Shown: piece by piece, positions 1 to 54,505 of the stretch | Layout: each line of letters begins with the position of its first letter | Numbering within the stretch: position 1 is the stretch's first letter | DNA from: Yuukianura sp. NJ FZ-2021 | Taxonomy: Eukaryota | DNA length: 64,000 bases | Assembly (NCBI GenBank): GCA_046563655.1 | Contig: CM102290.1 | Coordinates: 8,928,001-8,992,000 of the forward strand | Direction: 5' to 3' | The notes under the pieces: model-generated | What the model was told of the DNA's origin: nothing | The model's database searches: none | The model's input: the letters and a program-made list of their open reading frames with translations, nothing else | Made by a program: the position numbers and the translations under genes

Positions 1-2917
1 ATGTTGCGAACAAATCGTTGTAAAATTATTTGTTTCATTCCTGATCATGCTACTTTTTGTTGTGGTTTTGTTTTGTTCCATTCCACTGCTGAAATTGTAA
101 AGCACAAAGTTAGAATCAATTTGCGTCTGGAGGTCTGAACGGGAAACACGTTTAACCCATGTAGATATTATTAACTTGAATTAGCTTAGCAAATTACAAA
201 TCGTTTTAGCAATGGCGTGGGAAAAAGCGTAACGAGTCTCGGAAGTTTTCTAAACTAATAGTACAAACTTCCCTGTTCCTTAACTTTACTAATTGTTTTT
301 AATCCCGGATGGAGTGGGTTTTATAACTGAAAATGACTTTGAAATTTCATTATGTGAGTATCGATGAAAAACAAAACTAGCGCCGGATTTGGCCTTAAAT
401 TGAACTTTAGTGTATCAAATATTGTTTACGTGCTGCACTTAAATTTGTATAAAGGATCACTGTATCTGTGAGCCTATTATTACCATGATATCAACTTCAA
501 ATCTACCATAAAAGTCAAGTGTAAAAATGTTGCGGCTCCACCGCAAGCATACAGAAATCTGTATCGGTTTGAGAACGAAGCGTGGCTTACGCAGCTCAAT
601 GTTTCGTGCCTATAAAATACCTGTTGCTAGAAAGAGTTTCAAATCATCAAAAAATCTAAAAGCAACGTGCTTTATGGAATTGCCGGAATAGTTTTCATGT
701 TATTGACACTTCAATCAAAAATATACCATGGACGATAATATTTTAAGAAAAGTGACAGGAAAATATGCAGATTATCGGCGTTAACGCTATTTTTGCTCCA
801 TTTCTTTTTGAATCGCTTGTGTTTCACGTTTGAAGATTATGTATGTCATTGTTGTCCAGAGGCAAACTTAGAAAAAATTTGATTCTTTTGAGTTGAGATT
901 TTTGATGTATGTACTGACTGTACACCCACTGTCATTTCATTACTCTATGTTCTCGCAATGTAGTAAATTGGCAGGAAATTCCAATTGCGGAAAGGGGCGT
1001 TGCGTTGTTATGTTATGTCGAAAAGTAATTTTCAGTTTTGCTAAAACCTCTGCTTAGTACGATTCAATCCAGATTATTTCGCAGTGCCAGTAATATGCTG
1101 CTCTTACATTGTTGTTTAAATATGTCAATTTCCAAAAATTGAGTTTTTTTTAAAGATGAGGCTTACTCAGCAGGTCAAGGTTGTTTATTCGCATTTTATC
1201 ATGGTTTCGTTTATATTTCAATGCATTCATCCTGGGTCGCAGTCTATGGCAAAAGATACGGCACAATCCATACTAGAAAATGGTGTAGAAATAATCCTGC
1301 TTTACTAAATTTTTTTTCGGAGGATTTTAAAAGTAATTTTTGGAATCTGGAATGCTTTAGTTTAGTTATAAATAAGGAAAAGCTAATAATGGGATGTTAG
1401 AGTTGAAATGTTGGTGAAAGGTGGCTTAAGTTGGTGGTCGTTGTGGATCTGTGAGTTGGCATTTGAGGGCTACCGGCGGTCAACTCGTGGAAGTGCGGTT
1501 TGTTGATGGAAAGTTTTTTCTTTTTGGAAGGAGGGAATTGGCAGTCTGTGAGCGAAGACTGGAAAGTATTTTGTGCCGTGTGGACATGGAGTGGGAACTT
1601 TCCGTATTGGCGTTTTGAGTTCCTCCGAATGAGTAGAAGGGGTTTTTGTGTAGTAAAAATCGATATGCGGCCTCTCTCATTCTACCCAACCTCTCTTCGT
1701 TTCTACCAAAAATGTGATGGTAGTCACACCGAAGAGGAGGATTCGGCTAGGGGAATAATGCTAGAAGACGACAGTGGAACCATATGAACTCTTCTTGTTA
1801 AGAAGGTAAAACAGAAGAGCAAAGACAAGGATCAAAATACTTGCTGTGTTCGTGGTTGCTTAGGCGCTGGCACCTTAGGAAACGCACTTATTTTTAAAGT
1901 TTTTCAATTTTTAGAAACAGCCTGGATAAGATATGTTGAATAGCCAAAAGGACTTCTTCTAAAGCGGAAATGTTTTTTTTTTTGCATAATGTTACTGGTT
2001 GACGCCTTTGCTGTCAAATGAAACTGGTGGCCGTATTTGACGTAGAAATTTGGAATTTTTGCCGTCATTTCGGCCACCAGTGGCAGAAATGCGTAATTGC
2101 CATTTCTGTCCATTAAGCATCTTTTATGTACCCAACTCGAAAGCCGGTTAGTTACGCAATAAACCTAGAGATGACACAAGTAGCAACGTTCTGCTATGAC
2201 ATGTCAGTGTCTGTTGTCGTTTCTGTGAGGTCATGTGACCTTCCGGTGGTCACAGGGTGGTTAGATGGCGAATTGGTGGCTAGTCAGTTCGTTGGATACG
2301 TCGATAGAGATGAGGTACTAACATGGAGTGAGCGTAGTCGGACGGAGTGGCTGAGACTGTACTGGAGAAACAAGGTCTTGGTTTTGAGCTAGGGGTGTTC
2401 TGTACAATGTGCCTCAAGACCTCTTTACTTGAACAAATGCGCTCTAACTTCTCACTCTCTGGCTCTCTACTCACTTTTTTCTCACTCCTTGTGTCTCTCT
2501 ACAACTTTTTCTGCACGACCATTTTTATATGGGGTTCTCAGATTTTTGTGGAAGCGAGAGAGGAGGGAAATGAGGATTTGAGTTTGATTCCTTCAAAGGG
2601 GCAAAGAATGTTGTTATTGTTCAAGAGGACATGACGAGGAGGCTATATTCTGAGTCTTCCTTTGGCTTTTTTCTTAAGGCTGGAGGTCATTTCACCATGG
2701 TTACTTGACCTCCTCCCGTATTCTTGTTTGGATTTGGAGTACTCATACCTTTACTTTTTCCTTGGTCAGGAGACAATGAAGACACCACTGTTTTCACCAG
2801 TTGACTTTAGTGTGGATTTTCGAATATTACTGATACCGTCAAAAAACGGTCAAAAATACTACGTTGAAAGTAGAATTGTAATTTTGATCCTAGTAAATCT
2901 ACACCTCTGAGAAAGAA

Positions 2918-3035
2918 ACTCAAAAAAGTTGTAATATTTTTTATAGAAAATATGTAGTAAGAAACTCAGAAAAGCTGGAATATTTTTTATGCATAATATA
3001 TGAGAAAAACTCAGAAAAGTGTTAGAAAAAGTTAT
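2918..3035. repeat. Imperfect ~45-bp tandem repeat, about 2.5 copies
   Basis: Units begin a(a)actca(a/g)aaaag and continue ...aatattttttat..., recurring near 2918, 2962 and 3007. Confidence 0.55.
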
Positions 3036-4118
3036 AACTCCAATGAGTATTTTTCCGGATTTTAGGAATCCGATGAAATAATGTTGTCCAACTGTCGTAT
3101 AACGCGCGCGGTATACGCCGTGAATTAGGGTGAGTGAATGAATTGGTGGAGGTGGGAAGTGAGCAATTCCCAGAGGGAGTGACATTCCATTCATTCCAGA
3201 GAGATTCACTATCCTTGGCCTCAGAACCAATTAGGCCGAATGAGTTGATCCAACGATGTAGGGCATGACACGTCTCCCAGAATTTCAGTTTATTTTAAAA
3301 TCTTAGTTGGTCCAACACGTCTAGTTGACATTTGCCAAAAGAGTAGACCACCCCGGAACGCATGTCCCATCTCTGACACTTGACTTAATTGAGGAGACGT
3401 GATAATTGGTGGGGAGTGGTACATTGTGATGTAGAGGAACATGGATCAAAGCATTTGTTGACATGATCTCGTCATTGCGACTGGATTACTATGAGTTAAT
3501 GTGAGTGTTTGTATTGTACGAGGAGAGAGGCTAGTGTTTGAAGGCTGGTGACAAGTTGTTTTAAAGCTTTTATGCACTTGAACGTTTAATACAAAACTCT
3601 GTTCTTATCCGAATTACATGGGATGGGAATGCCTCGTGAGCATCTTCTGTCCCGTCTCTTTTCTTCTCACTCTACTGGCTCACCGTCAGTTTTGAGTGAT
3701 TTACGAGGGTGTCCATTAACATTTAATTACTGTGGAGTCAAACTCAACACGAGAGTAGCGTCAAGTGGTTACTAATTTCCTTAGTAGCATTATTAGGTGG
3801 ATTAAGTTGTCAGCAGGTCTTTTTAAGTTGTGAATGAGTAAGGAAGGAGTAAATGATGGGTTGTCTGTGCGAGATGTTAGATTTCAAAAAATTGCAAACG
3901 ATAAATGTTTTCATGCCGTATACGCTAATGACGCTTTTGTTTTGGCGGGAAAACTTTTTTTAACATACTTTTTAGATGGAAGTCCACCAAATTTTTTTTT
4001 CAGTGTACATTAATATTACAAGAATACGGAAGGGTCCTTGATAAGTACTATATAAAATATGGCATACCCCCCTCCCCCTCTTCACCCCGCCCGGCTTCCT
4101 GCAGAGATCATTCTATGA

Positions 4119-4496
4119 AAAGCGTACCTGACAGTGTCAGGGTTTCCATTGTGTCCTGGAAGTTAGAGTTTCTCATCAGGTTTGGAAACTAATAAAGCAA
4201 TCTTTATCTTTGGACGCAGATTTTAAACTTGTGATCAAACTTTGTAACAGGTTTTTTTCCACTTTTGATGGGAAGTGTGTATTTTTAGATGTAGACTTAA
4301 AAAGACCATGATTGTAGGAACGTCTGTGACAACAGGAGTGAAGTTGCGTGGCGACGAGCGAGCGGTGGAAATGATTTTGAGTGAAAGCGGAACCTGTTGT
4401 GTGTTCATATCCAACAGCATTCGGCATGAGGGGAAACCAGCTTTCTCCAGATTCAATCTGCTCCAGTTCTTGTTCTTTTACCTCGTCTTCCTCCAT
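4119..4496 (-). pseudogene. Possible decayed coding fragment (unidentified; TE or gene relic)
   Basis: ATG-started acidic ORF MEEDEVKEQELEQIES... Coding-like text switches between frames and ends at a plausible donor (cag|gtacgc, ~4119). No family recognised. Confidence 0.2.
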
Positions 4497-5745
4497 CTAC
4501 TTTCCTATTTCAATTTTAGTAAACTAATATTTCTAATCCGCTTTTTCACCGTTTTCTTAGTTTTAGATAACACCGGATAGATTTAGATAGACCTAAACCT
4601 AACTACGTCGAGTTTTCATAGTTTTCATAGTTTCATTCCTATTCAAATTTACTTTCTAAGCGACATTTTTTGAAATGACGCTTTAAGGTATTGTTGCGGA
4701 CTTTTTACACTAGAATTAGACGAAATCTCGGCTCATAACCCGCAACTTAAAAAAAAACTAAATATTTTAAGCTATAGATTTAAACTGAAATTTTATATTT
4801 TAATTAACCTAAAAATTGAGGTACATGTAGAATATTTATTTTGGATATGCAGGTTGGTTTCTTTGTTCCATTTGGAGCAATGTCTTGTTCGATTTACTGC
4901 ATTGCTTCGTTCAAGTTGCTAAATCACCTTGCTTGCCAACTATGATTTAAAAATATCTGTTCATTTGGAGTTGAGAAGAAAGGAGATTTTTTGAAGTAAA
5001 CCCAAATAACCTGTGGGGTGTCATGGTCACGGGGCGATAAGACCATATTACTTTTGGGTGAATTGTAAGCTATTTGTGTGTTTTCTTTCAACGTCCTTCA
5101 TACTTCTGGGTGACCCTGTTCATCGTTGAATGGAAATGGAGTAAAAGGAATTTGTTCTCAAGGCTTTTCAAATTCTTGGGGTTTATGTATCGACTGGGTG
5201 TTTAAGCTGAAGTAGTTTTTGCCCTGCTCCCTTGCTGTAGTGTTCTCATAGCATAACTGTTTCAATACAAAAAGATGGAAATAAGTATAGGAGTGGAAAG
5301 AGAATGGATGGTGCAGTAGCGGAGAAAGTGGAGACAGATTAGAGGGACATTGGGTTGCTTCTGGGAATTGGCAACAAGTGGCCGTTTGTTTTGTCTTGCC
5401 CTACCTGTCCTACCTGCCCTGTACTTTCCGTCTCCCATGGAGCCAAGTGAAAGTAATTCAAATTCCCAAGGCTTTTATTATTCGACTTTTGTCCATTAGT
5501 ATTTTTCGGACGTAAATGGCGGCGGCGCACATCCAGCGTTAATTATGAGAACTTTATTTTATTAAAGCCGGATTCTTTTACTAAAGTCTGGATAGCGTTT
5601 TGTTCACGATTCATTACTTAATAATTATTAGTATCAACTATTATTAGAGGGTGTAAAAGCTTTACCCACTAAAATTTTAACCGTAAAACGCAAAAATTTG
5701 TTTAATATGATTATTTCGCATGAGCCGTAAAATGTATTAGTTAGG

Positions 5746-5950
5746 TTAGGGTACCCACAAAACTCGTACCTATGGGCATTTGGTATGCTTGTGTGGGTAC
5801 TTGGACTGAGAGAAATAGAGACGTCGCAATTAGAATTGAGAGGTGGGTTAGGGTACCCATGTAGCCAGTACCGTACGGGTACTTGGTGTGCCAGTGTGGG
5901 TACTTGACCTAGGAGTAATAGAGACATCACAATTAGAATTGAGAGGTGGG
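5746..5950. repeat. Diverged tandem duplication, two ~102-bp units
   Basis: Both units (5746-5847, 5848-5950) start ttagggtaccca, contain gtgtgggtactt and end caattagaattgagaggtggg. Confidence 0.8.
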
Positions 5951-6739
5951 TGACAGGTGACCTAACAAAGGGCGCAAGGCAGCAATTAAAAGAGAGAGAA
6001 ATGAGGTGAATTGGGAGTAAGTTGAGAGTGTTGTTTGTGTTGGGCCTTTCTCCTCATTTTTGTTGGATTTGGGATCCCCTGAGAGATGGAGAGCATGAGT
6101 TAAGAAGTGGAGCTGTGCTGCCTGGGTGAAGCGTCTCTAGAGCCACAGTGTCCTAGTCTCTCTCTCCCTTTCTTTTTGTAGTTGCCCCCTCTTCTCATGT
6201 GCCCCCTAGCTCAAAATGAGTTCTCTTATGGGCTCTCAAAGGTACAGGCAGAACAGGATGGAACAAACCCGTTTTTTCACCCGTGTCTCCTCAAAAACCT
6301 CGCTTTTCTTCTTTGGCACACAAGAGAGACGCACAGGCCGATGGAATTTGGTTATTCCAAATGTTGAAGAACCGTCTGTGCCTGTGCCTGTTCATACTAT
6401 TCGAATGGAGCGTCCAAACAGGCAGCACGAGGCTCACTACTTTCCTTTTGTGTGTCTGGGACCCTTTCATGTCCTATCTCTTTTGTGACATTAGGATTGT
6501 GTTATGTGTAGGATCTGGACATTTCCTGGCTCCTCTGGGCGGCTGCTAAGGGACCAAAGACGCTTGGAACCACACTTGACCTCAGAATATGCAAAGGTCG
6601 CGGTCCATAAGTCTAATGTATCAGGTGTAGCAGATATATTCTATAAAAACGCCTGAAATGTTTAAATATTTTTACTCAAAACCATTGACATATTTAGTTA
6701 GTTAACATTTAAATGAATATAATATTTAGTCATAGAAAG

Positions 6740-7328
6740 CAGAGATGCCGCGAATGTTCTGCCGCGGAATAAGTATTCGTCATATTACGCTGCCGGGAAA
6801 TCTGAACGAATTATCTGACGAGATATTAGGCTGTATAATTTCTATTATTTAGTTATGAAAATTTATGACTTTATCGAGAAAAGATAATTACTCTTATCTA
6901 GAAACGACAAAAAAATATTAGCCGAGTGAGTTAAAGTATGCCATTGTCACTGTTGCTGGATATCCGCCTTTTTGACGTTTTGTCTAATGGATATCCAATG
7001 GATAATATTCTTCATCCGGAAGAAGTGGCTGGAAAAAATAGATAGAAATGGATAGTTTCGGATACTTCCATCCAATTTCCTGTAGACGGAAGAATTTGTT
7101 TTATCCATCCGATAACATTGGCTAAACAAATTATATGGGTGTTTCTACTCCTGTAAGCGTTTGTTACTCAAAACTCAAACGGCAAAGAACTCAGAAGTGT
7201 CAGTTTTTTTTTCATTTTACCACCTTTCTACGCAGTATTTTATTCGGCCTAATATTGTTTTCCGAATATATTTTCCAAAGTTACTCGGCTATTTGATATT
7301 CGGTCAATTCAATATTCGGGCATCCTTA
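6740..7328. mobile_element. Degenerate hAT-like non-autonomous element (MITE)
   Basis: Left end cagagatgccgcgaatgtt resembles the reverse complement of the right end (taaggatgcccgaatatt). Subterminal tattcgg/ccgaata repeats. Flanks atagaaag / atataaaa match at 6 of 8, fitting a decayed 8-bp TSD. Confidence 0.5.
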
Positions 7329-7576
7329 ATATAAAATATTGGTTTCGTTAACATCAAGTGCATTGGGCCTAAATATTAGTATACGGTCCATAAGTAGCCG
7401 TTTATAAGTGTCAGAGAACGGGAAACTGAAAGTGGAAGATGTTGGCATCACGTCGTATCCTCTGGTCCCTCAATCCGAAAAGTCCTCAATTCGGGGTATT
7501 CTCCCGCGTTCGTTTTTATTCCGTTCGGGTTGTTCGGCTGAAGTAAATGAACAGAGACCCCTAAGATGAAACCGGT

Positions 7577-7720
7577 GCTCTCTCTCTCTGGTTCGTAGCT
7601 AATATATCATTTGGGAATGTAGCTCCAACAGGAGAAGAGTCCACCTTGTCTCTCTCTCCTTCCACTAGCTACCACAAAAACGGTTGTTTTTTGTCTGCAT
7701 GTAAACACTCTCAGTCAGTT
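7577..7720 (+). promoter_or_regulatory. Putative LDB/Chip core promoter: (CT)n/GAGA tracts and tandem TCAGT initiators
   Basis: ctctctctctct at ~7577, tctctctctc at ~7649 and tcagtcagtt at 7711-7720, upstream of the LDB coding region. No transcript data. Confidence 0.4.
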
Positions 7721-9208
7721 GGTTGAAGTGAGGGAAGAAGGACATAGTTGTTCTCTGCTGTCATCTCGAGTCAATGAGGCTTACGAACTAACTGCAAATT
7801 TGGCTTTAATCACTTTCACTTTCTTTTGTCCCTTCACGTGCTCCGTGACCTCCTTATGATGTTTACATAGCCTACAGGTTGCATAAACTTAATTTTACCG
7901 CGCATTGTACTCGTTCTACTGTGTAAATGTCACAGAATTTAGTAGGATCATTGGATTTGGCGAATGAGAAAGTTAGGGAGTCGTTTTCCGAACATTCAGT
8001 TTGACTGGACTTGTTTTTGTGCCAGTGTGCTACTCCCGAATCTCTTGGACCGCTTGACAGTTTCAACTTTCTCCTACCTGCATTTTTGCACATTTCATCT
8101 ATATTGGAAGAGCGATTTTGGCAGTTGTGTCACAACAACATAAACCTTAAGACGACGCGTGCGACATTTTTTGTTTTGTCGCAGTGCTAATCTGCAAATC
8201 GCTGCTAATTGTGATTTCGTGTTCTTTTGTGGCTAGTGAGCGTGAAATCTTGGAGTCGGATGTGGTTGTTATCAGAGGTCGGACGAAGATAATTATTGAT
8301 TCTGATGCGAAGGGAAGCGTTAATGACAGAGATGGACGTTGTGAAGTGAGTGATTAGATTTAGATACTAGCGACGACACTGACAAGAAGATGCTGACGTC
8401 TTTAAACAGTCCAGTTTGTCTCCTAAGCCATGTTGCATCCGAAGAATTTCATCCAGAAGAGTCAATGAATTCCGAGTCTTTGGGTTCATAATTTTCCAGG
8501 AAGCGAGCGTTGAAAGTAATGGAATCAGTGGCTGATTCCTCAGATTCAGTCATTTTCTCTCCGTTTGTCCAGAAGTCATATGTCCATGACTTGGTAAAAC
8601 TAGGCGACCTCTTCCTCAGCACATTGGGGAAATGGTGGGAAAAAGTAACAGAGCTTAGCAGATTGACGTCTCAGAAGTCGGAAGTCTTTCACCGTACCTC
8701 AGAATTATCAACGGCATATTCGCCTAGTTACTATCAATCGTTCTACATTAGATGCGGATGTCTCCGCAACTCTACACTGCATCTCAAACCATCATCTTTC
8801 CTTATTTGTCTCTTCTCCACGTGGTAGAGGAGATATGTATCTTGTGTTGTTGAGTGTAGCTCATTGTCTGTCAAGAACCCCGGAACGAAAATTCTGAACT
8901 CTACTAGTGAAGTCAAATAAATCACGACGGGTAAAAAAAGGAATAACCAAATTGGAATAAACTCGGAGCCGAAGAAGTTTTTCGACTTCAAAAACGAATT
9001 TCTGGGAGGGGGTGGGAGTGATAAAGTTGTCGTGGACGGTGGCGGGCAAACTGTGGTTGACCAGTGGGTCGATCAGCCACCCCCGCGCCCGCCACCGTGT
9101 TCCTGTGCTGCCTGTTGTACAAATTCCGATCCGTGGGGTGGCTGGGTCCCACCTCCGCCCCGTTCCTGTGGCCCACCACCCTTACCGCTTGGGCCGTCAT
9201 GTCCTCCG

Positions 9209-12200
9209 ATGGGACCAGGACCTTGTGGACCCCCGATGCCCCCCGTTCCTAACTCAATGCCCCCTCAGTCCCCCATGCCCATGCAAAATGGGCCACAAAC
9301 TCTCATGGGACCTCCGAATATGGGGGAACCACCTCGCATGCGAGGGAATTCCGAACAATTCTACTGCGGACCAGGACCACCACTCAATCCTCCACCACCA
9401 GCGGCTTATTATAGGTTTTTACAAAAACAATATTTCCTTATATTTTCCGTAGTTACGGCTTTTCAACACCTTGCTTTCAAAAACGCAGTCAAATAATATG
9501 TTAACAGAATGAGGTGAATCCAGTCAATTAGAGTCACTGAATCTAATGAATTATTATGTTTATATACTAGGCTGAGTAAATGAAGTGTGAAATAATTTGT
9601 GGAAAAAAGTGACAACTTGTAATTCTGACTTTTAACCTGTAATTTGTTTTGGTTTTGTTTGACAGACCGATGCCCATTCCTAGAAGAGCCGCCCCTTACT
9701 TCGGACAACCCGATTACCGTATTTATGAGCTGAATAAACGATTGCAGCAGCGGACCGATGACAGTGACAACCTTTGGTGGGATGCATTTGCAACCGAGTT
9801 CTTTGAAGATGATGCTACCTTGACTCTCACATTCTGCCTAGACGATGTTATCAAAAGATATAGTAAGTGCAGGAGTTGAGCAATGTTAATACTTTTTCCT
9901 TTTGATTTATCCGTGGATATTGTTTGATTCATTCCGGAAATCACGCTGAACCAACCGAAAATCGACAAATCGGGGAGCTAAGTTACCTATATGACACATT
10001 TCCCATTACTTCGTTTGTTGATTCCGGTTGCGTTTTGCTTGTAATTCAGAAATTAATTTTTGTATCAAGATAATTCAAAGCGATGGTTGTTTTATGTGTG
10101 TATTTTGAGTAGGATATTTAGATTTTCCTATTAAGAAATCCGTGTTTGATGTGATAAAGGCTAACTGAACTGCGGCCGGAGAAAGTGACACACCTTAACA
10201 TTGCAAAGCATTCTTTCTGAGAGAAAGTTCTTGTGAGGAAGTGGGGCAACAGTCCAATTGCGATCTCAATCTGATTCAGTGCAGAAGAGTGGTTGTTTGA
10301 GTACTATAGTAAGATCAGGTACATTATATATCCGACAATACCCATCAAGTACTATCGGTTTCCCGGGTTGGTAGGCCAGGAGAGGGAGTAATGTCGTTGT
10401 GAACAGAAACATTTTGTATTGATCAGCTATGTCGCGAGCCATGAATAATACATTTCCTACTGGTCGATGCGTCCTGAAAATAATTCGGAACGGAGGTATA
10501 GTAGATAGGAAGGAGAATACTTAACCCGGTACTAGGGCACAAGATTGTACTTTTCCAAAGTTTGCTACTACAATGAAATGAAAGTTTTAAAATTAATTTA
10601 CAAAACAAAAAGATTTAAATAAGTTGTGCATGCAGTACATATAAGTACACGTATTCTTTTATACAGGAATGTAGATTGCGTGCAGTACCACAATTTAAAC
10701 AGGTTGTAGAATCCATACGAGACGTGTTACGTACAAATCGCGAATCGTATCTGTTAATTTCTCTGATTTTCACTACGGGACAGAGAAAAAAGATTTTCAA
10801 GATTAGCAAAGTCTGCAACTTTGCTAATATTTTCATAGAATCATCAATTTTATTCACAATCTAATTCATAATTATAGTCTAATTCATAATAATCAAATTC
10901 CGAATTTTAAAATACTGTATTTGTTTGTTTTACAGCCATTGGAAGGACCCTCATTCCTCGGTACTTTCGAAGCATCTTCGACGGCGGCGTGACAGACCTA
11001 TCATATAATTTGAAGCATCCTAAAGAAACGTTCAACAATACCAGTATCACTTTAGACTGTGACCAGTGTACTATGAATACTGTACATGCAAAATCAATGT
11101 ATACTCAGGTACGAGACGCTTGATTGAAAAATTGGAATTGGCTCTGATAATTGATGTTACGTATTAATTTTGTTTCTGGTTTCCAGTTTCCTCTCCAAGT
11201 GTGTACAGAAGGTAGATTAATATTAGACTTCACTTTCGACGATTTAATGAGGATGAAATCGTGGCATTTCGCGGTGAGACAAGCTCGAGAGTTAGTTCCT
11301 AGGAGTGCTGTGGCCATGCATGCCCAACAACAGGATCCTGGTATGATGGAACAGTTGACGAAAAACATTACTCGCCAAGGTTTAACCAATTCCACACTCA
11401 ATTATCTCAGGGTAAGCAAGTAATTCTGGCGTAACGTTTATGAACTACAGCATTTACGCGTTTATATCAATTTCCGAACTGGATTATGTTATAGATGCGC
11501 TCTGAATTTTAGATTTTTAGTGTTATTAATATTTTTGGAATTGTTTGGTTTAATTCCAGCTCTGTGTAATACTTGAGCCAATGCAGGAACTCATGTCTCG
11601 TCACAAAGCCTATGCACTAACTCCCCGAGATTGCCTAAAAACTACACTTTTTCAAAAATGGCAAAGAATGGTAGCACCCCCTGGTAAGTTTGTCAATCAT
11701 TTATTTACTGAATGTATTGTTTAATGCGACATGATCCGATCTTGTGTTTAGAAGTTTAATTTAGATGCTTTCACTAATGAACATCTTCACATTCACAAAG
11801 CCGATTACGAATATTTTGCACAATACTGACTGTACTTCTATTTTAAATTTTGCAGAAGCCCAACGACCGACGTCAAAAAGACGAAAACGAAAAGGCTCAG
11901 CGTCAAATTCCACAGGAGTTGGTATTAACCCACCTACCACAAATAAGAAAAGGTCACCCGGTCCAAGTTTTTCACTCGCATCCCAAGATGTGATGGTTGT
12001 AGGAGAACCATCATTGAGTAAGTTTCAAACTGAAGTCATCTTTTTTAAACTGCAACACTCAGAATCTGGATTTCGAAATGGAGTGTGGTTATTTACTTTG
12101 CAGTGGGTGGTGAATTCGGTGATGAGGATGAGAGGTTAATTACAAGACTTGAAAATAGTCAATACGACGCAAACGCAGCGTTGGACACTGAGCCTTTCGG

Positions 12201-12435
12201 TGCGGATTCCCCACTACAAGGTGCTGGACCCACTTCCTGGCAACCAGCTCAAGATCGGCCACCTCATGGTACGAAGTTATGTTATGAGAACAATTACTAA
12301 ACCACTGTGAAACTACTTGACAGATCCCAAACGGATAAATAGTTAATTCCAACCTAGGAATTGCGAAGAACTTGAAATGACTTTGTTAATTTGTTTGGAA
12401 CAGGGAAGAAGAAAAAGCAACTTATGATAATATGA
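9209..12435 (+). CDS. Chi: LIM domain-binding protein (Chip/LDB1/LDB2 orthologue)
   Basis: Exons: ..9414, 9666-9862, 10936-11108, 11187-11411, 11560-11683, 11856-12017, 12104-12268, then a last exon (12404-12435 or 12324-12346, uncertain). Motifs: PYFGQPDYRIYELNKRLQQRT..NLWWDAFATEFFEDDA; IGRTLIPRYFRSIF; NSTLNYLRLCVILEPMQELMSRHK; NLS KRRKRK; LID DVMVVGEPSLMGGEFGDEDERLITRLEN. First in-frame ATG is 9209, but the frame is open from 8921. Confidence 0.96.
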
Positions 12436-13089
12436 CTTCTCATGACATCCTCATCACTCCCTGCGCCTAGGCCAATGAGTCAAACGCATCTTTGTCTTCT
12501 TGCGTTGATAACCGCAGAATTTCAGAGGCAACGATTGGCTCCTCCCAACTACCAAGTCCTTACTACAGAATACGCGCACGAACTACTTAACTTCGTGAAA
12601 CCAAAGCACGGGCTGGTTAACTTAACTTATATTGTCTTCTTTACAGTAGACCAATTTTGACAAGAACTACTTATTAGACGTTTAGCTTAGTTTTTCCATG
12701 TAGCTACTTTAACACCCTCCTAAGTACCTACAAATTTATTTCTAGTTCAAAATTGGTATTTTGTTTTGTATTGTTCAAATGAAACAATTTTATTTATACT
12801 CCAAGCATTTATTTTCAGTGATGATTCTAAGAATTAATCAAGTATGAAATTTCTATTCCTTCGTACAATAAAACGGTACAGTTTTCAGGTACTCTCATAA
12901 GCAAACTTATTTCGCAACACTCAAGCCATTACAACGCAGGCGTGAAATTCAACTTCAAGGTAATTTACGTACCAATACAATAATATGAACTCGTATTTGG
13001 CTGACTTTGTGTTTTTTTTAATTTTGGATTTTGAATTTTAGTTTGAATTTCGCGCTGGAGGCTAATTTTAGAAATGTAAACAGAAGGCG

Positions 13090-13140
13090 TGACGTCATGG
13101 CCTTCCATGGAGAGGATAGGAAGGCCGGGGGTATAAAAGC
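13090..13140 (+). promoter_or_regulatory. TATA-box promoter with upstream CRE-like palindrome
   Basis: gtgacgtca at ~13090-13098 and ggTATAAAAG at ~13131-13139, followed by an ATG-free leader up to ATG 13691. Confidence 0.7.
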
Positions 13141-13228
13141 GGCTGCAGAGAGTGAGAGCTCAACAATCGCTCGCCAGCAGCCGAAGGAGAAGGACCTCTC
13201 CCACCACCGCTCCGAGGACCAGCCAGCC

Positions 13229-13590
13229 GACGACCGGGACACGAGGGCTACACCAGAAGGACGACCGGGACACGGACTCTACACAAGAAGGACGACCGGG
13301 ACACGGGGCTCTACACCAGAAGGACGACCGGGACACGGACTCTACACAAGAAGGACGACCGGGACACGGGGCTCTACACCAGTAGGACGACCGGGACACG
13401 AGACCTTGGCCAAGTACCGCCCAGAAAGTCACTGAGGGATTCTTCATACTTCTGGGTCGAAAGGCTCGGGTATCTCGACCGGGACATCGCGGGCTTCTAC
13501 TCCACGACGACCGGGACACCCACCTCTTCAACCACACGACGACGACCGGGACATCGCGGGCTTCCATTGGACGACGACCGGGACACCCAG
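13229..13590 (+). repeat. GC-rich minisatellite array, core GACGACCGGGACAC, about 10 copies
   Basis: Cores at 13229, 13260, 13291, 13323, 13354 and 13386 (spacings 31, 31, 32, 31, 32; 63-bp higher-order unit). Four more cores lie between ~13475 and 13590, two of them followed by atcgcgggcttc. Confidence 0.92.
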
Positions 13591-13690
13591 AAGACTACAA
13601 CTGCAGACGACCTTGAAGCCAAGCATAGACACTTCACAGCCGGATCTCTTCGCCGCCATTGGACCATTCACTCGGGGCTCATCTCTCAAC

Positions 13691-15157
13691 ATGACGAAGG
13701 TGGGTCTCTAATTCCGCAGTGATCCTGCCTAGAACTAGAGATGACGATCGTTACTAATATCTTCTCTTTGCTTAATTTCAGGAACTGCTCACCCTGGACC
13801 TGGACAACACTACGGACTCTGGATTCTCCTCTGCCGTTGCCACTCCGGAAGATGACTTCAACTTGGATCTGGACCACTACCTCAACATCATTGGGACAGC
13901 AGTCTTCGAGCCATCCGGGGACCACCACTACGCTGGACAGGAGACAACCTTCACCATCCAAATTGGACCACATGGATTTCTGGACACCTCATCGCTGGAC
14001 ATCTCCGTCGTTGGACCATCCGGATCGAAGTACACCGTGGGGATTCACCGCCAAGATGACCACCACCTCTACTGCACCTTCCTGCCACTGGAAACTGGAC
14101 TCTTCGTTGGATCCGCCTTCGTTGGGACCTTCCATCTTCCGGGATCACCGTTCCACATCTTCATCGAGAGGAGCTACGCCACCATCAGCAAGCCAATCGT
14201 CACCATGGACGCCGAGATGCCACTACCAGACGGATTGACCAAGCGACGGAAGCCCTGGGGAATCACGACGAACCCTTCAACCGAACAGGTGAGAAAGCTT
14301 CTTTGCTTGGCTTGGACGCAATATCTAACGTTTTCGTTCGTTCTTTCTTGCAGATCTTCATCACGGACCGGGAGCATCACGAAGTTGTCGTCTATGGACC
14401 GGAGGGAGACTTCATCACAGCCTTCGGAGGACTCGGGACTTCAGCTGGACTCTTCTGCCGCCCAACTGGAATTGCCTACGACCCCCTTCTGGACCGGATC
14501 GTCGTGACGGACAAGGACAACCATCGCATCCAGGCCTTCACTCCAACCGGAATCTTCATGGCGCTTTTCGGCAGCAGAGGGAAGTATCCTGGACAATTTC
14601 TCTACCCCTGGGGGATCGCCGTCTCGAAGCATGGACTCATCGCGGTGGCCGACTCCAGGAACCATCGGATCCAGCTCTTCAACCCGGACGGAGGCATCTT
14701 GGGGATGATGTACCAACCCGGACTGGAGTTTCCTCGTGGCCTCACATTCGACCTCACCGGTGGGACATCCTGCAGCTCCAAGAAGACGAAGAAGCCAAGA
14801 TGAAGCAAGCAGAAGTCTAAAACGGATTCCTTGTTTTCGTCATCAGGAGACCACCTCTACGCCTCGGACTTCAACGCCCATGCCGTCTTCAAGATGCCGG
14901 TGGACTTCGCCTTCTGCCAGAAGATCGTGGATACTGGACTCTGGAGACCCTCTGGACTGGCCCTGGACAACTGCGGAAACCTCCTCGTGGCGGATACTCG
15001 GAACCACTCCATCAAGGTCTTCTCGTCGTCTGGACAACCCTTGGATTCCGTTCGTGCCATTGGACATCTTCCCCTGGAGCTTCCCACCGATGTCACCGTC
15101 TTGAAGGCTGGATTCATCGCCATCTTCGACTTCAACGGCAGGATCATCGTAGGCTAA
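13691..15157 (+). CDS. Filamin-repeat + six-NHL-repeat protein, TRIM71/LIN-41/wech-like, lacking RING/B-box/coiled coil
   Basis: Exons 13691-13699 (caacATG), 13782-14288, 14354-14759, 14847-15157, all phase-consistent. Filamin-like ISVVGPSG..HLPGSPF. NHL blades KPWG, RPTG..DKDNHRIQ, YPWG..DSRNHRIQ, FPRG..DFN, RPSG..DTRNH, LPTD..DFNGR. Confidence 0.9.
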
Positions 15158-16809
15158 TCTTCCCTAAATTTAAGTCTCGCTGTTCCGAAGTGTAATTTCC
15201 TTATATTTCTGTACTTAAGTTTAGTAAGCTTGAATAAGTTATCTAATGCTAATTTTCATAATTTAAGTTTTTTGTGCTCCATTGTATTCAATATTTTTAG
15301 GCTAATAAGTTAAGTTAAAATTTTGTTATTGTTCTAGTTGTAAGCAATTAGTTTGTAAGCTTCTCTAGGTTAAGTATAAAAATTTGTAATTCTAGATGTT
15401 AAGAAACTACTTTTCTGACGTTCTTCACAATTTGTACATTTTCACTTTTCTACTATTCAAATTAAAATTAACCTTTTAAAAATTCTAAAAAAACAAATGC
15501 TGGTACTACATTGCTTTCATTTCTTTTCCAATGAGAACAACGTTTTGAATTTAGAAGTTTATAACTTAAAAAATTTTTCCAACGCAGAAATTTTTCCAAA
15601 CTTGGTTTTCGCAAGGTCATTTCGAAGATGGTGTAAACTTTCCACAAGGAAGCCTCCGATCTGGGGAACGGAATAAGTATAAGAGTGTCAGGTCATGAAT
15701 ATTTGAAATGGAAACGACATAGTCATTCTAGCTATGCTTTTTTTTGGTTTTCTTATTCCAGTTTCCATTGTTACCAGTACCATTATAGGCTAATTTTTCA
15801 AAGTCTTTCACATGGCGTCAATAGGGCTACCCTCAGAAAGAGAAAATAAGAAAGTGAACTTTTCCAGTCACTACCTCAGATAGCTAAGCTGTTTCTTATT
15901 GTCATTTTGTCTCACAGACGTCATTAGAATTCGGTTCTCAAGAAGAGAGTGCAAAACTCACTTTGGGTAAGCTTAAAAATATACTCTATCAAGAACAACA
16001 TAAACACGACGTTCGACATCCAGCCACTTCAGCCACATCCTCTTACAATTGATTTTCTGTTCCTTTGTACTACCAAAGAAACGACAAATGTAGTTGCACA
16101 CTTGAAACTGAAAGTGTTTTTTTCTTGAAATTGGTTTCAGCCAGGCAAATAATTGTGGCTGTAAGTCGTCGGTGCAGAACAACTGGTTGTCTTGCCTTGT
16201 TACGCCATGAGCAGGATCATCCTCGCAGAAACATCTCGGTAAGTTTAGTTTCTTCATCATAATTATTAAACATTATGGAAGAATGTTGCATCAATCATTT
16301 CACGGCTGTGCAATACTTGAATGGTAAATTCGGAATGAGTATTAAAAGTATTTTATTGGTTCCAGTGTATAGGTTCTATGATTGAAGTCTACCTAGCCCG
16401 CCTTGAAATTGCAATTACAACGGGAGATTCTATGGTTCGATAAAAACATTACGTTGCTTGAAATTTAAATTATGGCTATTATTAGTATGCTTTAGGTGTT
16501 TAATTCTAGGAGTTCTTTTCGTTTACAGTTCTCGCTTCCACGTTAGACAACTTCTGAGTCGATGCACATGCACGGTTCTGCTATTGAATAGTCATTCCAG
16601 CTATATTTAAAGACCAAGACGGAAACAAGGTAATATGTTACTGTATTACTCTATTTCTGATTTGAGTAGTTGACGTAAATCACGCCTTTTCCTGTTGCGA
16701 GCGACAATTCAACAGTTGACTTATTACCTACAAAGTATTAAAACTCCTAAGCAAAAGTTTATTTTTTCAGAGTTTCGCTGGAATAGTTCAGTTGTGGTAG
16801 GAAGCTAAA

Positions 16810-19224
16810 ATGGAAAAGTTTGATCCGGGAACAGCGGTGGTGGCAACATCAACGGTTGAGATATCGATCTCGTGCAAGTATGAAAAATTCAACTAGCACA
16901 CACCATGTAGAAGTTCCAGTTTTAAGATGTTTTTTAAAAACTTGTGTTTTCCTCAGGAATCTCTTGGATAAAGATGTTCTATCGAAGTCAGATCCAATGG
17001 CAGTAATTTACCATCGTCCTCGCGGGACGAACCATTGGGTGGAGCTTATGAGGACCGAAACTATTAAGGATAACTTGAATCCAGAGTTTGCGGCTAAAGT
17101 ACACTTCATTAAAACTCTTTTGATACAATTTCTATGTATCCTTTTACGTATTTACTATTTCTACAATGAAATGTTTTTTTTAGGTTACCGTGGAGTACAG
17201 GTTTGAGGAACAACAGTCGATGCGGTTCGAAGTGTACGACATCGATAACCCTTCAGGGAAATTGAGCGAGCAAGATTTCTTGGGGTTTGTGGAATGCACT
17301 TTGGTATATTAGTTTAGAACAATCACTATAATTAAATTGAATATTCAATACTTAACTATGCTATTCTCTCAGGCTCAAATTGTTTCTGCTGGTGCAGGAG
17401 GATTGGAACTTCCGTTAGCACAAATTGCTTATGTCTCAAATTCGGGAAGAAAAGGCAGCAGCGGCGTCATTAAAAGTTGCGGTTCCATCGTTTTATTAGC
17501 TGAAGAACTCGCTTCTCTAAAAGATGAGGTAACCTTTTGAACTATCAACTGATTATTTATCACGGCATTGTGAGAGATGGATGGAGATGGATTGTTTCGT
17601 CTTAGGTTTCAATTCGTTAAAGGAATTTCGTTTGATTTCACAGGTTACGTTTAAATTTGGAGGAAACTCAATGGGAAAATTCAGCTTCTGTATATTTCCT
17701 CCTAAACTGTTCTACGTTTTATCCAAAGTTAACGAAGGAGGAGGGTTTACAATTGTTCACAGAAGTCATATTACACAAGGCACAGAACCTAACTGGGGAG
17801 CAGCTACGGTTTCTATACGTAGCCTTTGTAACGGTGACAGGGACCGTGGGCTGAAAATTGAATGTTTCCAGGAAAAAAGAAGTGGATCTCACAAATCACT
17901 CGGTTATGTATTCACATCGCTTAACAAAATAATTTCTTTGGGGACTGGAGGTATTAAGCTGCTTTCATCGACAGACCAAAAAGTATGGCCACATGACACC
18001 ACAATTTTTATAACTTAATCGAAGCGTGACGAATGTGACATTTTGATATTTACTTTCAGGAAACTTCAACAGTGCTACTCATCATCTACTGTAAAATTTC
18101 TCCTATTTACACTTTCTTAGACTACATCCAAAATGGAACTCAGATTCATTGCTGTTTTGGGATCGATTTCACCTGTAATTACGATCTTAAGATCAAGTTT
18201 TTAAGTACAATCCTAGCAACCAATTCTTTTTAAACGACTATTCCAATATTTACAGCATCAAATGGTGACCCCAGTGACCCGACATCACTGCACTACTTCT
18301 CACAAACTCTGGATACCCCGAACCCGTACGAGCAAGCCATACAAGCCGTAGGTGACATCATTCAAGATTACGACACAACAAAAATGTTTCCTGTTGTTGG
18401 TTTCGGAGCTCGAATTCCACCCCATGGAGGTGTATCCCATAATTTCTTTGTAACTTTAACAGAATCTCCGCAGTGTTTTGGAATCCATGGCGTAATGGAA
18501 GCATACCGGTGAGTCCTATAGTACACTATTAAGTACAGTTCAGATTTTGTTTTCATGTTTTTACTTTTTAATTCATTCCAGAAACTGCATTCGGCAAGTC
18601 CAGTTATACGGACCAACAAACTTTGCTCCAATAATTAATCACGTTGCTAATTTGGCGGCGCAGAATCTGAATGGGGAACATTACTTTGTCTTGCTGATTA
18701 TAACCGATGGTGTGATCACGGATATGCCGCACACGAAAGAGGTAAATCAGTTTAATTTTTTGCAAAAATCAATGCTCAACAATATTAAGGAAATCCTTCT
18801 TCGTTCACAGGCGATTGTAAATGCTGCGGATTTACCACTCTCCATCATCATCGTTGGAGTTGGAGGAGCAGATTTTGATGCGATGGAGGAATTAGATGGG
18901 GATTCCGTTAGAATTTCCTTCAATGGAAGGCAGGCGTCTCGTGACATTGTTCAGTTCGTGCCCTACCGAGATGCTTTTTCATGGATGGCATCGACTGTCG
19001 GTCCAGGTTTGGGTGGGCCTCTACAGTCGCGTCAAGGAGCTTATGCCCCGAATCCTCAGTCGAATATGAACACAGCTACTCACCGCATGGCGCAGGTCAA
19101 ATTGGCACAGGAAGTTTTGGCAGAGATACCGCAGCAGCTAACGAGTTACATGAAGAGCAAAGGCGTTTTTCCTCAGAAACCAAGCTCTGCCCAATCACGT
19201 CTGTCGGTACGATGCCCTCCTTGA
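16810..19224 (+). CDS. CPNE: Copine (C2A-C2B-VWA), copine-8/5-like
   Basis: Multi-exon from aaaATG 16810. Motifs: [148 protein letters not shown]. Confidence 0.95.
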
Positions 19225-21462: not shown

Positions 21463-24322
21463 ATGGCTACTGTCTCGGTAGTGTCACCGCTTATGGTACC
21501 TCAGGACGATGTAGATGACCGGAAGTCGGATGACCTGGAAGACTGGGATGCTTGGGAAGGGTGTCGTCCAGAGAGATGGGCTCCCGTTGGAGCCAACGAC
21601 TCTGACAAGGAACACTCAATTTGCGGAGCTTTCGATGAAAGGTAGCTTCAAGTTCATTGGATATTAACATTCAGTACGAAAAATCATTCACTTATTTGGA
21701 AAGACTAAGAACTGAATCTGGAAAAAAAATGTATCACGGATGCTTAAAAGCTTTTAATTTCGTAACTTTATGAGTAAAGTTAATTTGGGAAGTGTACACA
21801 AAGAGACAATTAAGTTCTGCATTGAAAAAGTATGAATAATCGATCATATATATCATGCTCATTACATCAAACTTCATAACAGCAGTTTAGAAATTCAGAC
21901 TAAGACGATCGGAGAAAGCAAACTTTCTCCAACTTCTTGAAGTTTCTTTTTTTTTTTTTACTTTCGTACATGCTCGTTTATCCCTTGAGATTTCAAACAA
22001 AGTTTTGTAAAATACTCCAACTTTCATTGGCATTTTTTTTTCTTAATTTCTAGCTGTGTGGATAACATTGAGCTGCTGAAGCTGAAAGAGGAACAAGAGC
22101 AGTTGACCTCAGCTCTTCTGGCACTAACAACACATTTTGCGCAGGTACCATTTCGGTTTATCAATACTTACGTAAGACGGTACTTTGCAAGTTGCAAGAC
22201 GAAGCTTATTTCCTTCTACCCAGTTTTCACTTTAACTGCCTCTTTGTTACTTTCAGGTTCAGTTCCGAGTGCAACAAATTGTCGTAGCCCCACCGGAAAA
22301 GAAGGAGCTTCTCCTGAAAGATTTGGAGGAATTTACATTTCGAGGTATCCCATCAGTAGTTACGGAACGCTTTGGGACTGGTAACAACGATGACTGTGAA
22401 GTGGATGATATCAAGGACAAGATGAAAGCTCAGAGGGAAAAACAAAAAGACTTAATCAATCAGTTGAAGTCGCAATTGGAGGACTTGGAGTCTTATGCTT
22501 ATGCCACTGGAGAAGCAGGTCTGCCTCAAAGCGTTCTTTTGGAACGACACAAATTAGTTGTAGGTAAGTTTAAATAAGGGAATTACGTTATTCTATCTGC
22601 AGAAGAATGTTAGCAGCAATTTAACTTACTTATTCTCACAGAGCAATTGAGTGCACGCTTAAATTTGAACATGGACCTGGAGAAAGTTGGGAATGATACA
22701 GACTTGAAGGTTCATTTGGAAGAAGCAATTAGTGGGGTAAGAACGGAGACTGTTTCACACAATTTCAAAATTCATTTTAAAATGAATTTTCATTATCCTA
22801 AAAATATTTCAATTTTTTTCACTGTATAGGTGGTGAGTCCAATGAAAATGAAGGAACAGCTCGTGGACCAACTCAAGACTCAGATTCAAGACTTGGAAAG
22901 GTTTATCCAGTATTTACACGGAGAAGGTAGCTGGGAAGGAAGCTGTAACTGCACATGTCCTAAGCACACCACACCAGAAACAGTAAATCAAGCAAAGATG
23001 AATCACGATGAAGAGGTAGAATTCAATTTTTAAAGGAAATGCTAATTATTTAACTCGATTTGAGCTTAGGGATATTCCTGCTTTCGCAATTTTTAAAAGT
23101 TTTGATGCTCTTGTTCCCTAGCTCCGAGATCGAACAATTCACATGATGAAGAAAGCGTTGACGCTGATTCAAATGTTCGCTGTGGCTCAGTTTGGCTGTT
23201 CCCCAAACAACTTCCACATGAACACGCTAAAGAAAAGTGCCAAAGGAAACCACTGGGGGTAAGAATATACTTTGCTCCAAGACTATTTTGTTTAATATAC
23301 TTTATAGTTCATTATACTAAAGGATTTTGTGTCAACGTAGGGACTTAAGGGCTTCTTTGGAAATGGCAATTAGCAAAGTATACAACCTTGCGGTAGCGGC
23401 AAATATACCACCAGACAGTGACTACACTTCAGACTGCGAAGACAGTCCATCCATATCGTGTAACCAAGCCCTTACGGCAGCCGTAAGGAAGGACCTGTCA
23501 TCCGCGTTAGCAGATTTACTTCAACACGGTCTGATCCATGTAGGTGTACTTTCTATTTTGAACTCTGAATTTTCTAAAAAGTTAAAATCTAAAAAGTATT
23601 TACGAATTGCAGTTAGGACAGAGTCAGAGCTTAGTTCCATTCATGAGCTGCTTTCCAGCTCGCAGTGGACAAATCTCTGGGTTTCTTACGGCATGGGATC
23701 TCATCCTTAAATTTTATCAAATTAAAAATGGAGAAAAATATAACGCCACTCCAGCACGACGCCTCTCTCAGAGTTTCGGTTTGGAAATTGTTGGTTCAAC
23801 GGCCATCACCAACAAACAGGTAAACTATTGATCATTCTACGACTTTTTTGAAAAGCATTTTGTATGTATGCTTTGTACTTGAAACTTTCCAGATTCTTTT
23901 AAGCACAATTGACAACATAATTTCAAGTCATTCACGATACAAGCGAAGTATGGAATCCCATTTTAAAGCTTTCGTTTGTGCAGCACTCAAGTACGTTTGC
24001 TAAACTGTTTTCATAAATAGAACAAAATGCAATTGAGAATATTTGCAGTGCACGTCGTTTGGTACCATGGCTGAGACTAATCGTGAGGTGTCAAGGACTC
24101 GTGGACAACTATTACATGCCATGGAGTTACGTTTCTAAAACAGGTAATTCGATTAAGAATCGTAATTTAAGACATTTACAGTTCAATTCATTTGAAAATT
24201 TCTTTAATTTAGGTTTCGAAGATTCATTTCGGTCACTTGACAAGCTATCTACGCTTGACTTTGACCTCCCAGTTGACCTAGCCATACGACAATTTCAAAA
24301 CATCAAGGACGCCTTCCAGTAA
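21463..24322 (+). CDS. RUNDC1: RUN domain-containing protein 1
   Basis: Multi-exon. Motifs: ERWAPVGAN; EEQEQLTSALLALTTHFAQVQFRVQQIV; KEQLVDQLKTQIQDLERFIQYL; NHWGDLRASLEMAI; AWDLILKFYQIKNGEKYNATPARRLSQSFGL; C-terminal FDLPVDLAIRQFQNIKDAF. Confidence 0.93.
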
Positions 24323-25965: not shown

Positions 25966-27742
25966 TCACCAATTCTCCACCTTTGTTTTAAGCTGAAGAT
26001 ACTCAATTATGTTCTTGACGACATCCATGCTGGTTGCTTGCCCTCCAAGATCTAACAGACGATGATGAATTTAAGACTCAAATCGTGTAGTCAATTGTTG
26101 CACAAATTCCTTTACCTGGTGTGTGAATCTTGTCCTCATTAATGGTTTTATTAATTCCTTCGGCCAACCACTGCGCATGATTATCCAGTCGCAGATGAAG
26201 AAGCAAATCCACTGCAGCGTTCATCATTGAAATTGGATTGGCAATATTTTTACCAGCAATTGCTGTTCCAGTGTTACGTGTTCCGGGCTCGAAAACTGCA
26301 TACTATCCAATGAAATGTGCGATATCAATAGATGAAGCCATAAATAAGATGGTAGATTTTCCACATTCAATTATAGCTACAATTTGACTGTAAAAATGGA
26401 AATGTTCTCTGAATTTATCACCTCGGGTCCATAGTTCCGTCCGGAGAAGAGTCCAGCTCCACCAGTTAATCCACAAATGACATTTGACACAATTGTCCCA
26501 TACAGGTTTGTTGTCAGCATGACATCAAACTGATGAGGGCGAGAAACAAGTTGCATGCAACAGTTATCGATGATCATGTCGTTATGTTCGATATCCGGGT
26601 AATCCTTGGCTACTTCACGACTCACGGCTAAAAACAAACCGTCTGAGGATTTCCTGAGATTCGCAAGAAAAATTCTCAGCTTTATATCAATTAATTGTGA
26701 TTCGCTGTGTCAAACTGATGATTTACATAATATTGGCTTTATGCACAGTTGTTACTTTCTTGTGTCCATTACTCCTAGCCAAATCAAAGGCATAGCGAGC
26801 CAATCGTTCGGAATTGTCCCTTGTAACAACTTTCAGGCATTCAACAACTCCTTTAACACTCTGAAACCAGATACAAGGTCAAACTAATTGTGTCCTATAA
26901 AATATTAATTTCCAGACTTATGGTAAGCCACTTTACCTCGTGCTCCATCATGGCATATTCGCCTTCAGTATTTTGTCGAACGATGGTAATGTCGATATCA
27001 TGGTGACGAGAGGGGATGCCAGGATACGAATAACAATGAAGCACATTCACGAAAAGGTCAAGCTCATTCCGGAGAGCAACGTTGCGAGACATGATGTTAG
27101 GATTGAGACTTCGGGTTTCAATATTCCCTAAAATATAAAACACATTTAAAATTTCGGTTGAGCAAAACAGTAAACAACATTAAGTCTTATACTCACCTTT
27201 CAGTGCGACACCATTTCTACGAATTGATGTAATTGCATATTCCAAGTCCTCATTCCCCTCCGAACTCGGATCAATTGCAACATCTTCGAAGTCTACTGGA
27301 ACTCCAGCATATCTAAGCCAAAAATAAATTATAACTTAGGCCCTGCCCTAGTCGTCTGTAATAAGTTGATGGTATCAAAAAATAACTAACCTGAATACTT
27401 CTTTAACATAGGACATGAGTTCTGGTCCAATCCCTCCACCGGGTAGCATTGAAACAGTATGTCTTCCACCGTACTTGGCTTTCGGTATTACATTCTATAT
27501 GGTAAAGTGTTGCATACTAAATATAAAACGTCTTTCTTTTTGAAACAAAAAGGAGAAAGAGATAACCGAAAATCGCTTACTAGCGCTTGTGCTAATCCCC
27601 GATTCTGTTGATACTGATGATAGTATGCAGAGTCTTTATTGAGAGATGCTCCACTTAATGGTGTGAATACTTTTGCAGAATTTAGAGGGAACCAACCATT
27701 GGTAAACATTCTTTGAAGATACACCTGTCTGAGGGCCGCCAT
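25966..27742 (-). CDS. IDH3G: Isocitrate dehydrogenase [NAD] subunit gamma, mitochondrial
   Basis: Multi-exon, presequence-like N-terminus. Motifs: [106 protein letters not shown]; ends KTKVENW*. Confidence 0.93.

Positions 27743-47705: not shown

Positions 47706-50536
<2,831 letters not shown>

Positions 50537-52175: not shown

Positions 52176-54505
<2,330 letters not shown>

Follow-up and report, generated by a model that had tools for sequence, protein, structure and literature searches.

TRIM71/LIN-41 is a central regulator of developmental timing, and the respective shares of RNA binding and ubiquitylation in its function are still debated. For TRIM71, the RING domain has been described as dispensable and the NHL domain alone as still reaching RNA, deletion of the whole TRIM region strongly attenuated repression in tethering assays, and a sub-region of the TRIM part was found to act jointly with the filamin domain in repression (PMC3592402). 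Hairpin contacts of zebrafish LIN41 (DrLIN41) are made by C563, R564, R581, S582, R611, K628, D629, Y658, W660, R676, R707, F722, R752 and R770 (Kumari et al., PMC5908797). Wech, in which this pocket is partly conserved, still prefers structured RNA in RNAcompete according to the same source.

Here, these systems are compared with a filamin-NHL gene on the plus strand (13691-15157) of the window, i.e. the whole 64,000-nucleotide stretch of Yuukianura sp. NJ FZ-2021 DNA that was analysed. With a probability of roughly 0.6, we interpret this locus as a complete gene for a TRIM71/LIN-41-derived protein of an old family lacking the RBCC region (RING, B-box and coiled coil), which is predicted to bind structured RNA and to carry an N-terminal phosphodegron. 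The gene consists of four coding exons with an intact frame, from an ATG at 13691 to a TAA stop at 15155-15157 (Table 1). Its three introns (13700-13781, 82 nt; 14289-14353, 65 nt; 14760-14846, 87 nt) are all of the GT-AG type, and the spliced coding sequence of 1233 nt encodes 410 amino acids plus the stop. The complete gene of ~410 amino acids proposed in a preliminary description of this DNA was thus confirmed, with exact coordinates and canonical splice sites. The frame of exon 2 is closed by a stop two codons 5' of the acceptor and contains its first Met only at about residue 150; the three-codon exon 1 is therefore required. No AATAAA was found in 15158-16800, and an ATTAAA is the candidate polyadenylation signal.

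Table 1. Features of the filamin-NHL locus and its surroundings; positions are those of the window.
Feature	Position	Strand	Basis or remarks
LDB gene	9643-12300	+	Pfam
TATAAAA box, putative core promoter	13132-13138	+	~260 nt beyond the LDB AATAAA (12867)
Putative long 5' leader, ATG-free	13139-13690	+	ATG count
31-32-nt tandem repeats in the leader	13229-13585	+	Ten exact copies of CGACCGGGACA
Coding exon 1	13691-13699	+	Met-Thr-Lys; donor AAG/GTGGGT; sole in-frame ATG
Coding exon 2	13782-14288	+	aa 4-172, covering the acidic leader, the filamin repeat and the first part of NHL blade 1
Conserved leader motif DSGFSSAVATP (aa 15-25), candidate GSK3/beta-TrCP-type phosphodegron	13815-13847	+	Pattern match
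Coding exon 3	14354-14759	+	aa 173-307 and first base of codon 308: NHL blades 1-4
Coding exon 4	14847-15157	+	aa 308-410 and TAA stop: NHL blades 4-6
Candidate polyadenylation signal ATTAAA	15461-15466	+	~300 nt 3' of the stop codon
Copine, next gene downstream	16787-19221	+	Pfam
RUN-domain exon	24017-24319	+	Pfam
Isocitrate/isopropylmalate dehydrogenase	26081-27179	-	Pfam
Zuotin/DnaJC2-like with Myb domains	29686-31281	+	Pfam
DEAD-box helicase	45006-46387	-	Pfam
DEAH-type helicase (HA2, OB)	47785-50533	+	Pfam
Thiolase	53392-54502	+	Pfam
Alpha/beta hydrolase	54984-56575	-	Pfam

Directly upstream and on the same strand lies the LDB gene, with Pfam matches to LIM_bind and LID within 9643-12297 (LIM_bind at 9643-11420, the two halves of the LID motif at ~11990 and ~12100), the stop of its last ORF at 12298-12300 and an AATAAA at 12867. 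The ~260 nt between this AATAAA and the TATA box bear out the earlier claim that RBCC exons cannot fit between the 3' end of LDB and the TATA box. Furthermore, neither RING nor B-box was detected with Pfam in any of the 101 plus-strand stop-to-stop ORFs of at least 35 aa in 1-13700, of which 24 were scanned at E <= 0.001 and 77 at E <= 0.05.

The putative 5' leader contains no ATG in the 555 nt from 13136 to 13690. In 2000 mononucleotide shuffles of 13160-13690 the average was 4.8 ATGs and 1% of the shuffles were ATG-free, a test whose independence is lowered by the tandem repeats in this region. The repeats are arranged in a block of 5.5 copies with 88% match (13229-13400) and a degenerate block of 3.3 copies (13476-13585). 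The 11-mer CGACCGGGACA occurs in ten copies spaced by 31-35 nt in the two blocks, exclusively on the plus strand and, within the window, exclusively in the leader; the repeat core was not seen in the contigs of relatives, apart from chance 7-mers in one of them (L007). The 11-mers could be an array of sites recognised by a sequence-specific factor, or the repeats may be no more than a minisatellite. As RNA, the 541-nt leader gave a less stable fold than all 100 of 100 shuffles (z +3.24); the leader repeats thus do not form LIN41-type hairpins, which would have pointed to autoregulation. Two additional ORFs, one antisense and overlapping the leader (13160-13567, minus strand, 135 aa) and one out of frame and overlapping the filamin-NHL gene (13741-14238, plus strand, 165 aa), lack family matches and appear to result from sequence composition and the tandem repeat.

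The window is gene-dense and contains housekeeping genes; its short introns and ~40% GC suggest a compact animal genome. A window-wide scan enumerated 210 ORFs of at least 70 aa, 183 of which were searched against Pfam, the 27 omitted ORFs either overlapping the filamin-NHL gene (13) or being nested in two long ORFs (14). One of these long ORFs (37739-39787, plus strand), uninterrupted over 683 aa and without a Pfam match at E <= 1e-4, is located just 5' of a SNAPC3-like exon (40510-40860). The other, of 1127 aa (57549-60929, minus strand), takes up the final catalytic-domain piece of a protein-tyrosine-phosphatase gene (57549-61853, minus strand) and shows no further Pfam matches beyond that piece. 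A tblastn search of the protein against the window recovered a single copy of the filamin-NHL gene, a match at 39962-40030 considered as a second copy being judged to be chance (21.9 bits, E 2.3). The idea of a lineage-expanded effector thus finds no backing within the window, and the relatives described below look like one old conserved family.

In the 410-aa protein, an acidic leader precedes a single filamin repeat, which is followed by six NHL blades. Pfam identified Filamin (PF00630) in the exon-2 residues 46-125, corresponding to 13917-14156 (32.3 bits against a cut-off of 26.9, E 1.9e-7), and NHL with 82 and 47 bits against a cut-off of 20, and no other domains in the four exons. The leader (aa 1-48) contains ten D and E residues and one K or R. 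Both the Pfam calls and this charge count agree with the previously proposed order of short acidic leader, filamin repeat and six blades. The filamin repeat is located directly 5' of the NHL region, and the zebrafish structure 6fpt aligns over the junction between filamin and blade 1. The six blades follow the TRIM71 register, and exon 4 aligns to residues 171-278 of the TRIM71 chain 7qrx. All nine blade signatures named in the preliminary description are present in the TRIM71/LIN-41 order given there, i.e. KPWG (160), RPTG (208), DKDNHR (225), YPWG (256), DSRNHR (272), PRG (299), DFN (315), RPSG (341) and DTRNH (357), with DFN occurring additionally at residues 28 and 402. The reported lack of RING, B-box and coiled coil was upheld as well, since Pfam finds neither RING nor B-box and the 48-residue leader, judged by its length, has no room for a coiled coil. 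Its predicted domain content places the protein outside class VII of the TRIM (RBCC) proteins, which is defined by RING, B-box and coiled coil.

For the comparison of RNA-binding pockets, residue numbers were anchored by a gapless alignment of a fish TRIM71 (P0041, 386-775) to 6fpt_A (20-409), with 435-824 as the range of the construct (PMC5908797). The 14 contact columns are occupied in the window protein by R, K, R, E, R, K, D, Y, W, R, R, F, R and R. Eleven of these are identical to zebrafish LIN41; of the other three, R564K counts as a conservative exchange, which leaves C563R and S582E as differences. By residue identity, the basic hairpin pocket of DrLIN41 is thus present (11/14 plus one conservative exchange), and the RNA-binding Arg residues are kept rather than lost in this 14-column comparison. 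Canonical TRIM71 retains all 14 contacts in nine rows, two insect rows retain 13, mosquito wech retains ten and has R611 replaced by L, and the Trichoplax and Brachionus outgroups retain at most one. K564 and E582 are common to all family members covering those columns. Two length differences from TRIM71 also mark the family, namely one inserted residue in blade 1 and a shortening of blade 5 by about four residues ahead of the R752 equivalent. With an acidic residue at the position where LIN41 contacts a flipped-out base (S582E), together with C563R and the shorter blade 5, specificity may differ or be lost.

The relationship to TRIM71/LIN-41 was assessed using IQ-TREE with 40 rows and 400 columns, with Trichoplax and Brachionus nhl-1 as outgroups. 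Thirteen stand-alone rows, one of which (P0202) was assigned to the group via alignment and tree, form one clade (100/100) on a long stem (1.89). This clade falls inside the TRIM71/wech ingroup (100/99) relative to the two outgroups, where long branches meet, and adjoins insect TRIM71 and dipteran wech (94/95), with which a quick tree is concordant. Placement within the LIN-41 clade, as proposed earlier, is thus tentatively indicated with respect to the TRIM71/wech ingroup, in a tree rooted by two outgroups and composed without TRIM2/3, Brat, Mei-P26 or Thin rows. Those families enter the comparison through a family profile, which scores 304 bits against the TRIM71 chain, including one in-register stretch of 205.6 bits, versus 300 bits summed from four out-of-register stretches against the Thin chain, ~165 bits against TRIM2/3, 154 against Brat and 100 against Mei-P26. 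TRIM71 is thus the best in-register sequence match to the profile among solved structures. Together with the clade placement and the 11 of 14 identical RNA-contact residues, this supports the TRIM71/LIN-41 type assigned in the preliminary description.

By alignment and tree, the filamin-NHL protein is one of at least 13 related proteins without an RBCC region, which constitute a small, conserved and uncharacterised family. In a BLASTP search against 365 proteins, the relatives P0093, P0321, P0106, P0096, P0351, P0122-P0126 and P0115 share 39-47% identity with the query, compared with 33-37% for canonical TRIM71 proteins. One of them (P0093), a 534-aa protein of the springtail Allacma fusca, aligns from query residue 1. 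B-box (PF00643) and RING are absent from the precomputed Pfam lists of all complete family members, and the family alignment lacks an RBCC region. Searches for longer proteins with exon 2 as query yielded 509 candidates, none of them at E <= 0.001. Exon 3 as query retrieved 521 proteins at E <= 1e-10 among 744 candidates, and the family profile retrieved 347 at E <= 1e-20 among 5063 candidates. An exhaustive search of representatives gave 127,920 matches at E <= 0.001; the best 150 of these are mostly giant multi-NHL proteins and include three that match the full profile in a single stretch (P0093, P0321 and P0351). The window's own protein was absent from the matches of the protein database searches.

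A metagenome scan provided additional relatives, with 608 pattern matches, 362 of them confirmed and 80 kept, representing 78 loci. In four contigs of 1.8-2.4 kb (L001-L004), the match is continuous (intronless) and complete ORFs of 485 to ~590 aa are present, all four with an in-frame stop before the first ATG and no RBCC region; in L004, the 3' end has an AATAAA followed by an A run. These contigs look like mRNA, which would mean that the RBCC-less form is expressed in relatives. In the genomic relatives L005-L008, tblastn alignments break at query residues 172/173 and 307-312. The intron after aa 172 is common to the window gene and L006, L007 and L008, and the intron near aa 307/308 to the window gene and L005, L007 and L008. 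These shared positions of introns 2 and 3 support both the model of the window gene and an old age of the family. In L007 (1233-2758), a single exon contains both the start Met and a DSGYSS motif, and the mini-exon of three codons is missing; intron 1 thus seems confined to the lineage of the window.

As a stand-in for the window protein, the structure of a 42%-identical relative (P0106) was predicted, with a mean pLDDT of 73.8. Values were below 50 for residues 1-95, about 80 for the Ig-like sandwich and at least 90 for the propeller, and the leader is modelled as disordered except for one 13-residue helix. The best Foldseek hits of this model were the zebrafish Lin41 filamin-NHL structures 6fpt/6fq3 (E ~2e-33, ~400 columns), and comparison with the TRIM71 NHL domain gave a TM score of 0.89 (normalised to the target) and an rmsd of 2.7.

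The leaders of the family are unalignable except for one motif. The pattern [DSE]SG[YF]x[ST]xxx[ST] occurs once in each of the eight complete family proteins and in none of 25 canonical TRIM71/wech proteins, and its presence in the ORFs of L005 and L007 extends this to ten of ten complete N-termini. In both the query and L007, it is located near the N-terminus. Doubly phosphorylated DSGXXS is the binding motif of beta-TrCP and S-x3-S(P) a primed GSK3 site, with beta-catenin LDSGIHSGATTTAPS as the model case, and RASSF1C is entered with SSGYCS in Table 1 of that source (PMC5954166). The variant in the Allacma leader, SSGYCS, is the same hexamer. Given that the leader motif matches the GSK3/beta-TrCP form, we infer regulated turnover from this sequence pattern. 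The abundance of the protein is probably controlled post-translationally via its N-terminal DSG-Phi-x-S-xxx-T-P motif, which has the form of a GSK3-relay/SCF-beta-TrCP (Slimb) site. According to a preprint, C. elegans LIN-41 is rapidly eliminated at meiotic maturation (10.1101/378398), which provides a precedent for the regulated removal of a LIN-41-type protein.

Structured RNA would be bound via the top face of the propeller, where the retained basic pocket residues are those that zebrafish LIN41 uses on an RNA hairpin with a three-nucleotide loop. Since a RING is missing and the leader is too short for a coiled coil, the protein should be capable of neither ubiquitylation nor TRIM-style dimerisation. 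TRIM71 requires its B-box/coiled-coil region to repress, and the window protein, which lacks this region, would depend on other partners or act by occupying LIN41-type RNA sites. Hairpin RNAs should thus be accessible to a protein reduced to filamin and NHL whose pocket is intact, whereas most repressor activity, all E3 activity and coiled-coil dimerisation should be missing. As far as can be judged from sequence, it is most likely an RNA-hairpin binder without an E3 or repressor module of its own. A stricter possibility, which follows the decoy idea of the preliminary description and appears doubtful, is that of a pure competitive decoy that occupies the same hairpin sites as a canonical TRIM71/wech of the same animal without any repression, acting as a natural dominant-negative whose level is tuned by the leader degron. 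The retained pocket residues are compatible with such a role, as is the attenuation of tethered TRIM71 repression upon deletion of the TRIM region while the NHL alone still reaches RNA; however, in TRIM71 the filamin domain itself plays a part in repression alongside a TRIM sub-region (PMC3592402), which may leave the protein with residual activity. The family-specific pair K564/E582 furthermore hints at a shifted specificity and not at the same targets.

That the protein is instead an adaptor, with propeller and Ig-like repeat docking proteins and not RNA, is unlikely. Fly Wech, the nearest insect relative, functions in integrin adhesion and docks proteins at muscle attachment sites, so NHL domains of the Wech-side clade can also bind proteins, and in the tree insect TRIM71 and wech are the neighbours of the family (94/95). 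NHL propellers have moreover been described as versatile binding platforms (PMC9634614), but 11 of the 14 LIN41 RNA contacts are kept, more than in mosquito wech, and Wech itself favours structured RNA in RNAcompete (PMC5908797). Least credible, and very improbable, is a locus that does not stand alone, being an unexpressed relic or the 3' end of a larger TRIM gene with RBCC exons far upstream or beyond the window. Although an exon 1 of only three residues could point in this direction, the region immediately 5' is taken up by the LDB gene, which runs on the same strand and is terminated by a stop and an AATAAA of its own, a TATA box and a 555-nt ATG-free leader precede the start codon, and the frame and canonical splice sites are intact. 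Further arguments against it come from the mRNA-like contigs of relatives, which lack an RBCC region and have an in-frame stop ahead of the start codon, and from the leader motif, which both the query and L007 carry near their N-termini.

The reading as a stand-alone RNA-hairpin binder could be extended to the whole family, possibly of basal hexapods, as hairpin binders derived from TRIM71 that lost the E3 and repressor module, gained a GSK3/Slimb-type degron and serve as signal-degradable antagonists of LIN-41/TRIM71 repression. This is speculative and, in our estimation, rather unlikely; if true, such an antagonist would give the heterochronic pathway an extra kinase-controlled switch. More generally, a natural and conserved protein consisting of filamin and NHL only would be a ready-made separation-of-function allele and a small, probably monomeric tool for hairpin recognition, and through the conserved leader motif, the availability of such an RNA binder may be tied to kinase signalling.

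No published description of RBCC-less filamin-NHL proteins, nor any of TRIM71 in springtails, was found in literature searches, and the relatives are present in public databases under automatic names such as 'unnamed protein product' and 'tripartite motif-containing protein 71'. Proteins of similar length with Filamin and NHL occur in other phyla; the bare architecture is thus not unique, and what gives the protein its value is the pocket it has kept and its leader motif. What is new, on the sequence comparisons presented here, is the combination within one conserved family of a well-preserved LIN41 pocket, loss of the RBCC region and a degron-like leader. The similar proteins in other phyla are represented by ESM Atlas clusters named TRIM71 (416-529 aa, mostly Cnidaria and Chordata), which resemble the window protein in length and Filamin/NHL content with scores of 0.91-0.95; they are leads only, with three Pfam families displayed per cluster and some members that may be fragments. 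GSK3/beta-TrCP substrates such as beta-catenin, Snail and RASSF1C share with the leader, as a pattern match only, the DSGXXS motif and a Ser/Thr at four-residue spacing, the query motif ending in Thr-Pro. TRIM71/LIN-41 (class VII TRIM-NHL; 6fpt/6fq3) has the same filamin repeat followed by a six-bladed NHL propeller, whereas the window protein lacks RING, B-box and coiled coil, is only 33-37% identical, and differs by C563R, S582E, a shorter blade 5 and the DSG-type leader motif, which is absent in 25 of 25 canonical proteins. Wech/dappled, the dipteran LIN-41 homologue, occupies the same neighbourhood in the tree, and its Pfam sets are also without RING, which represents a partial loss of the architecture. 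Unlike the window protein, Wech keeps the B-box and is ~800 aa long, and mosquito wech has lost more pocket residues than the protein described here.
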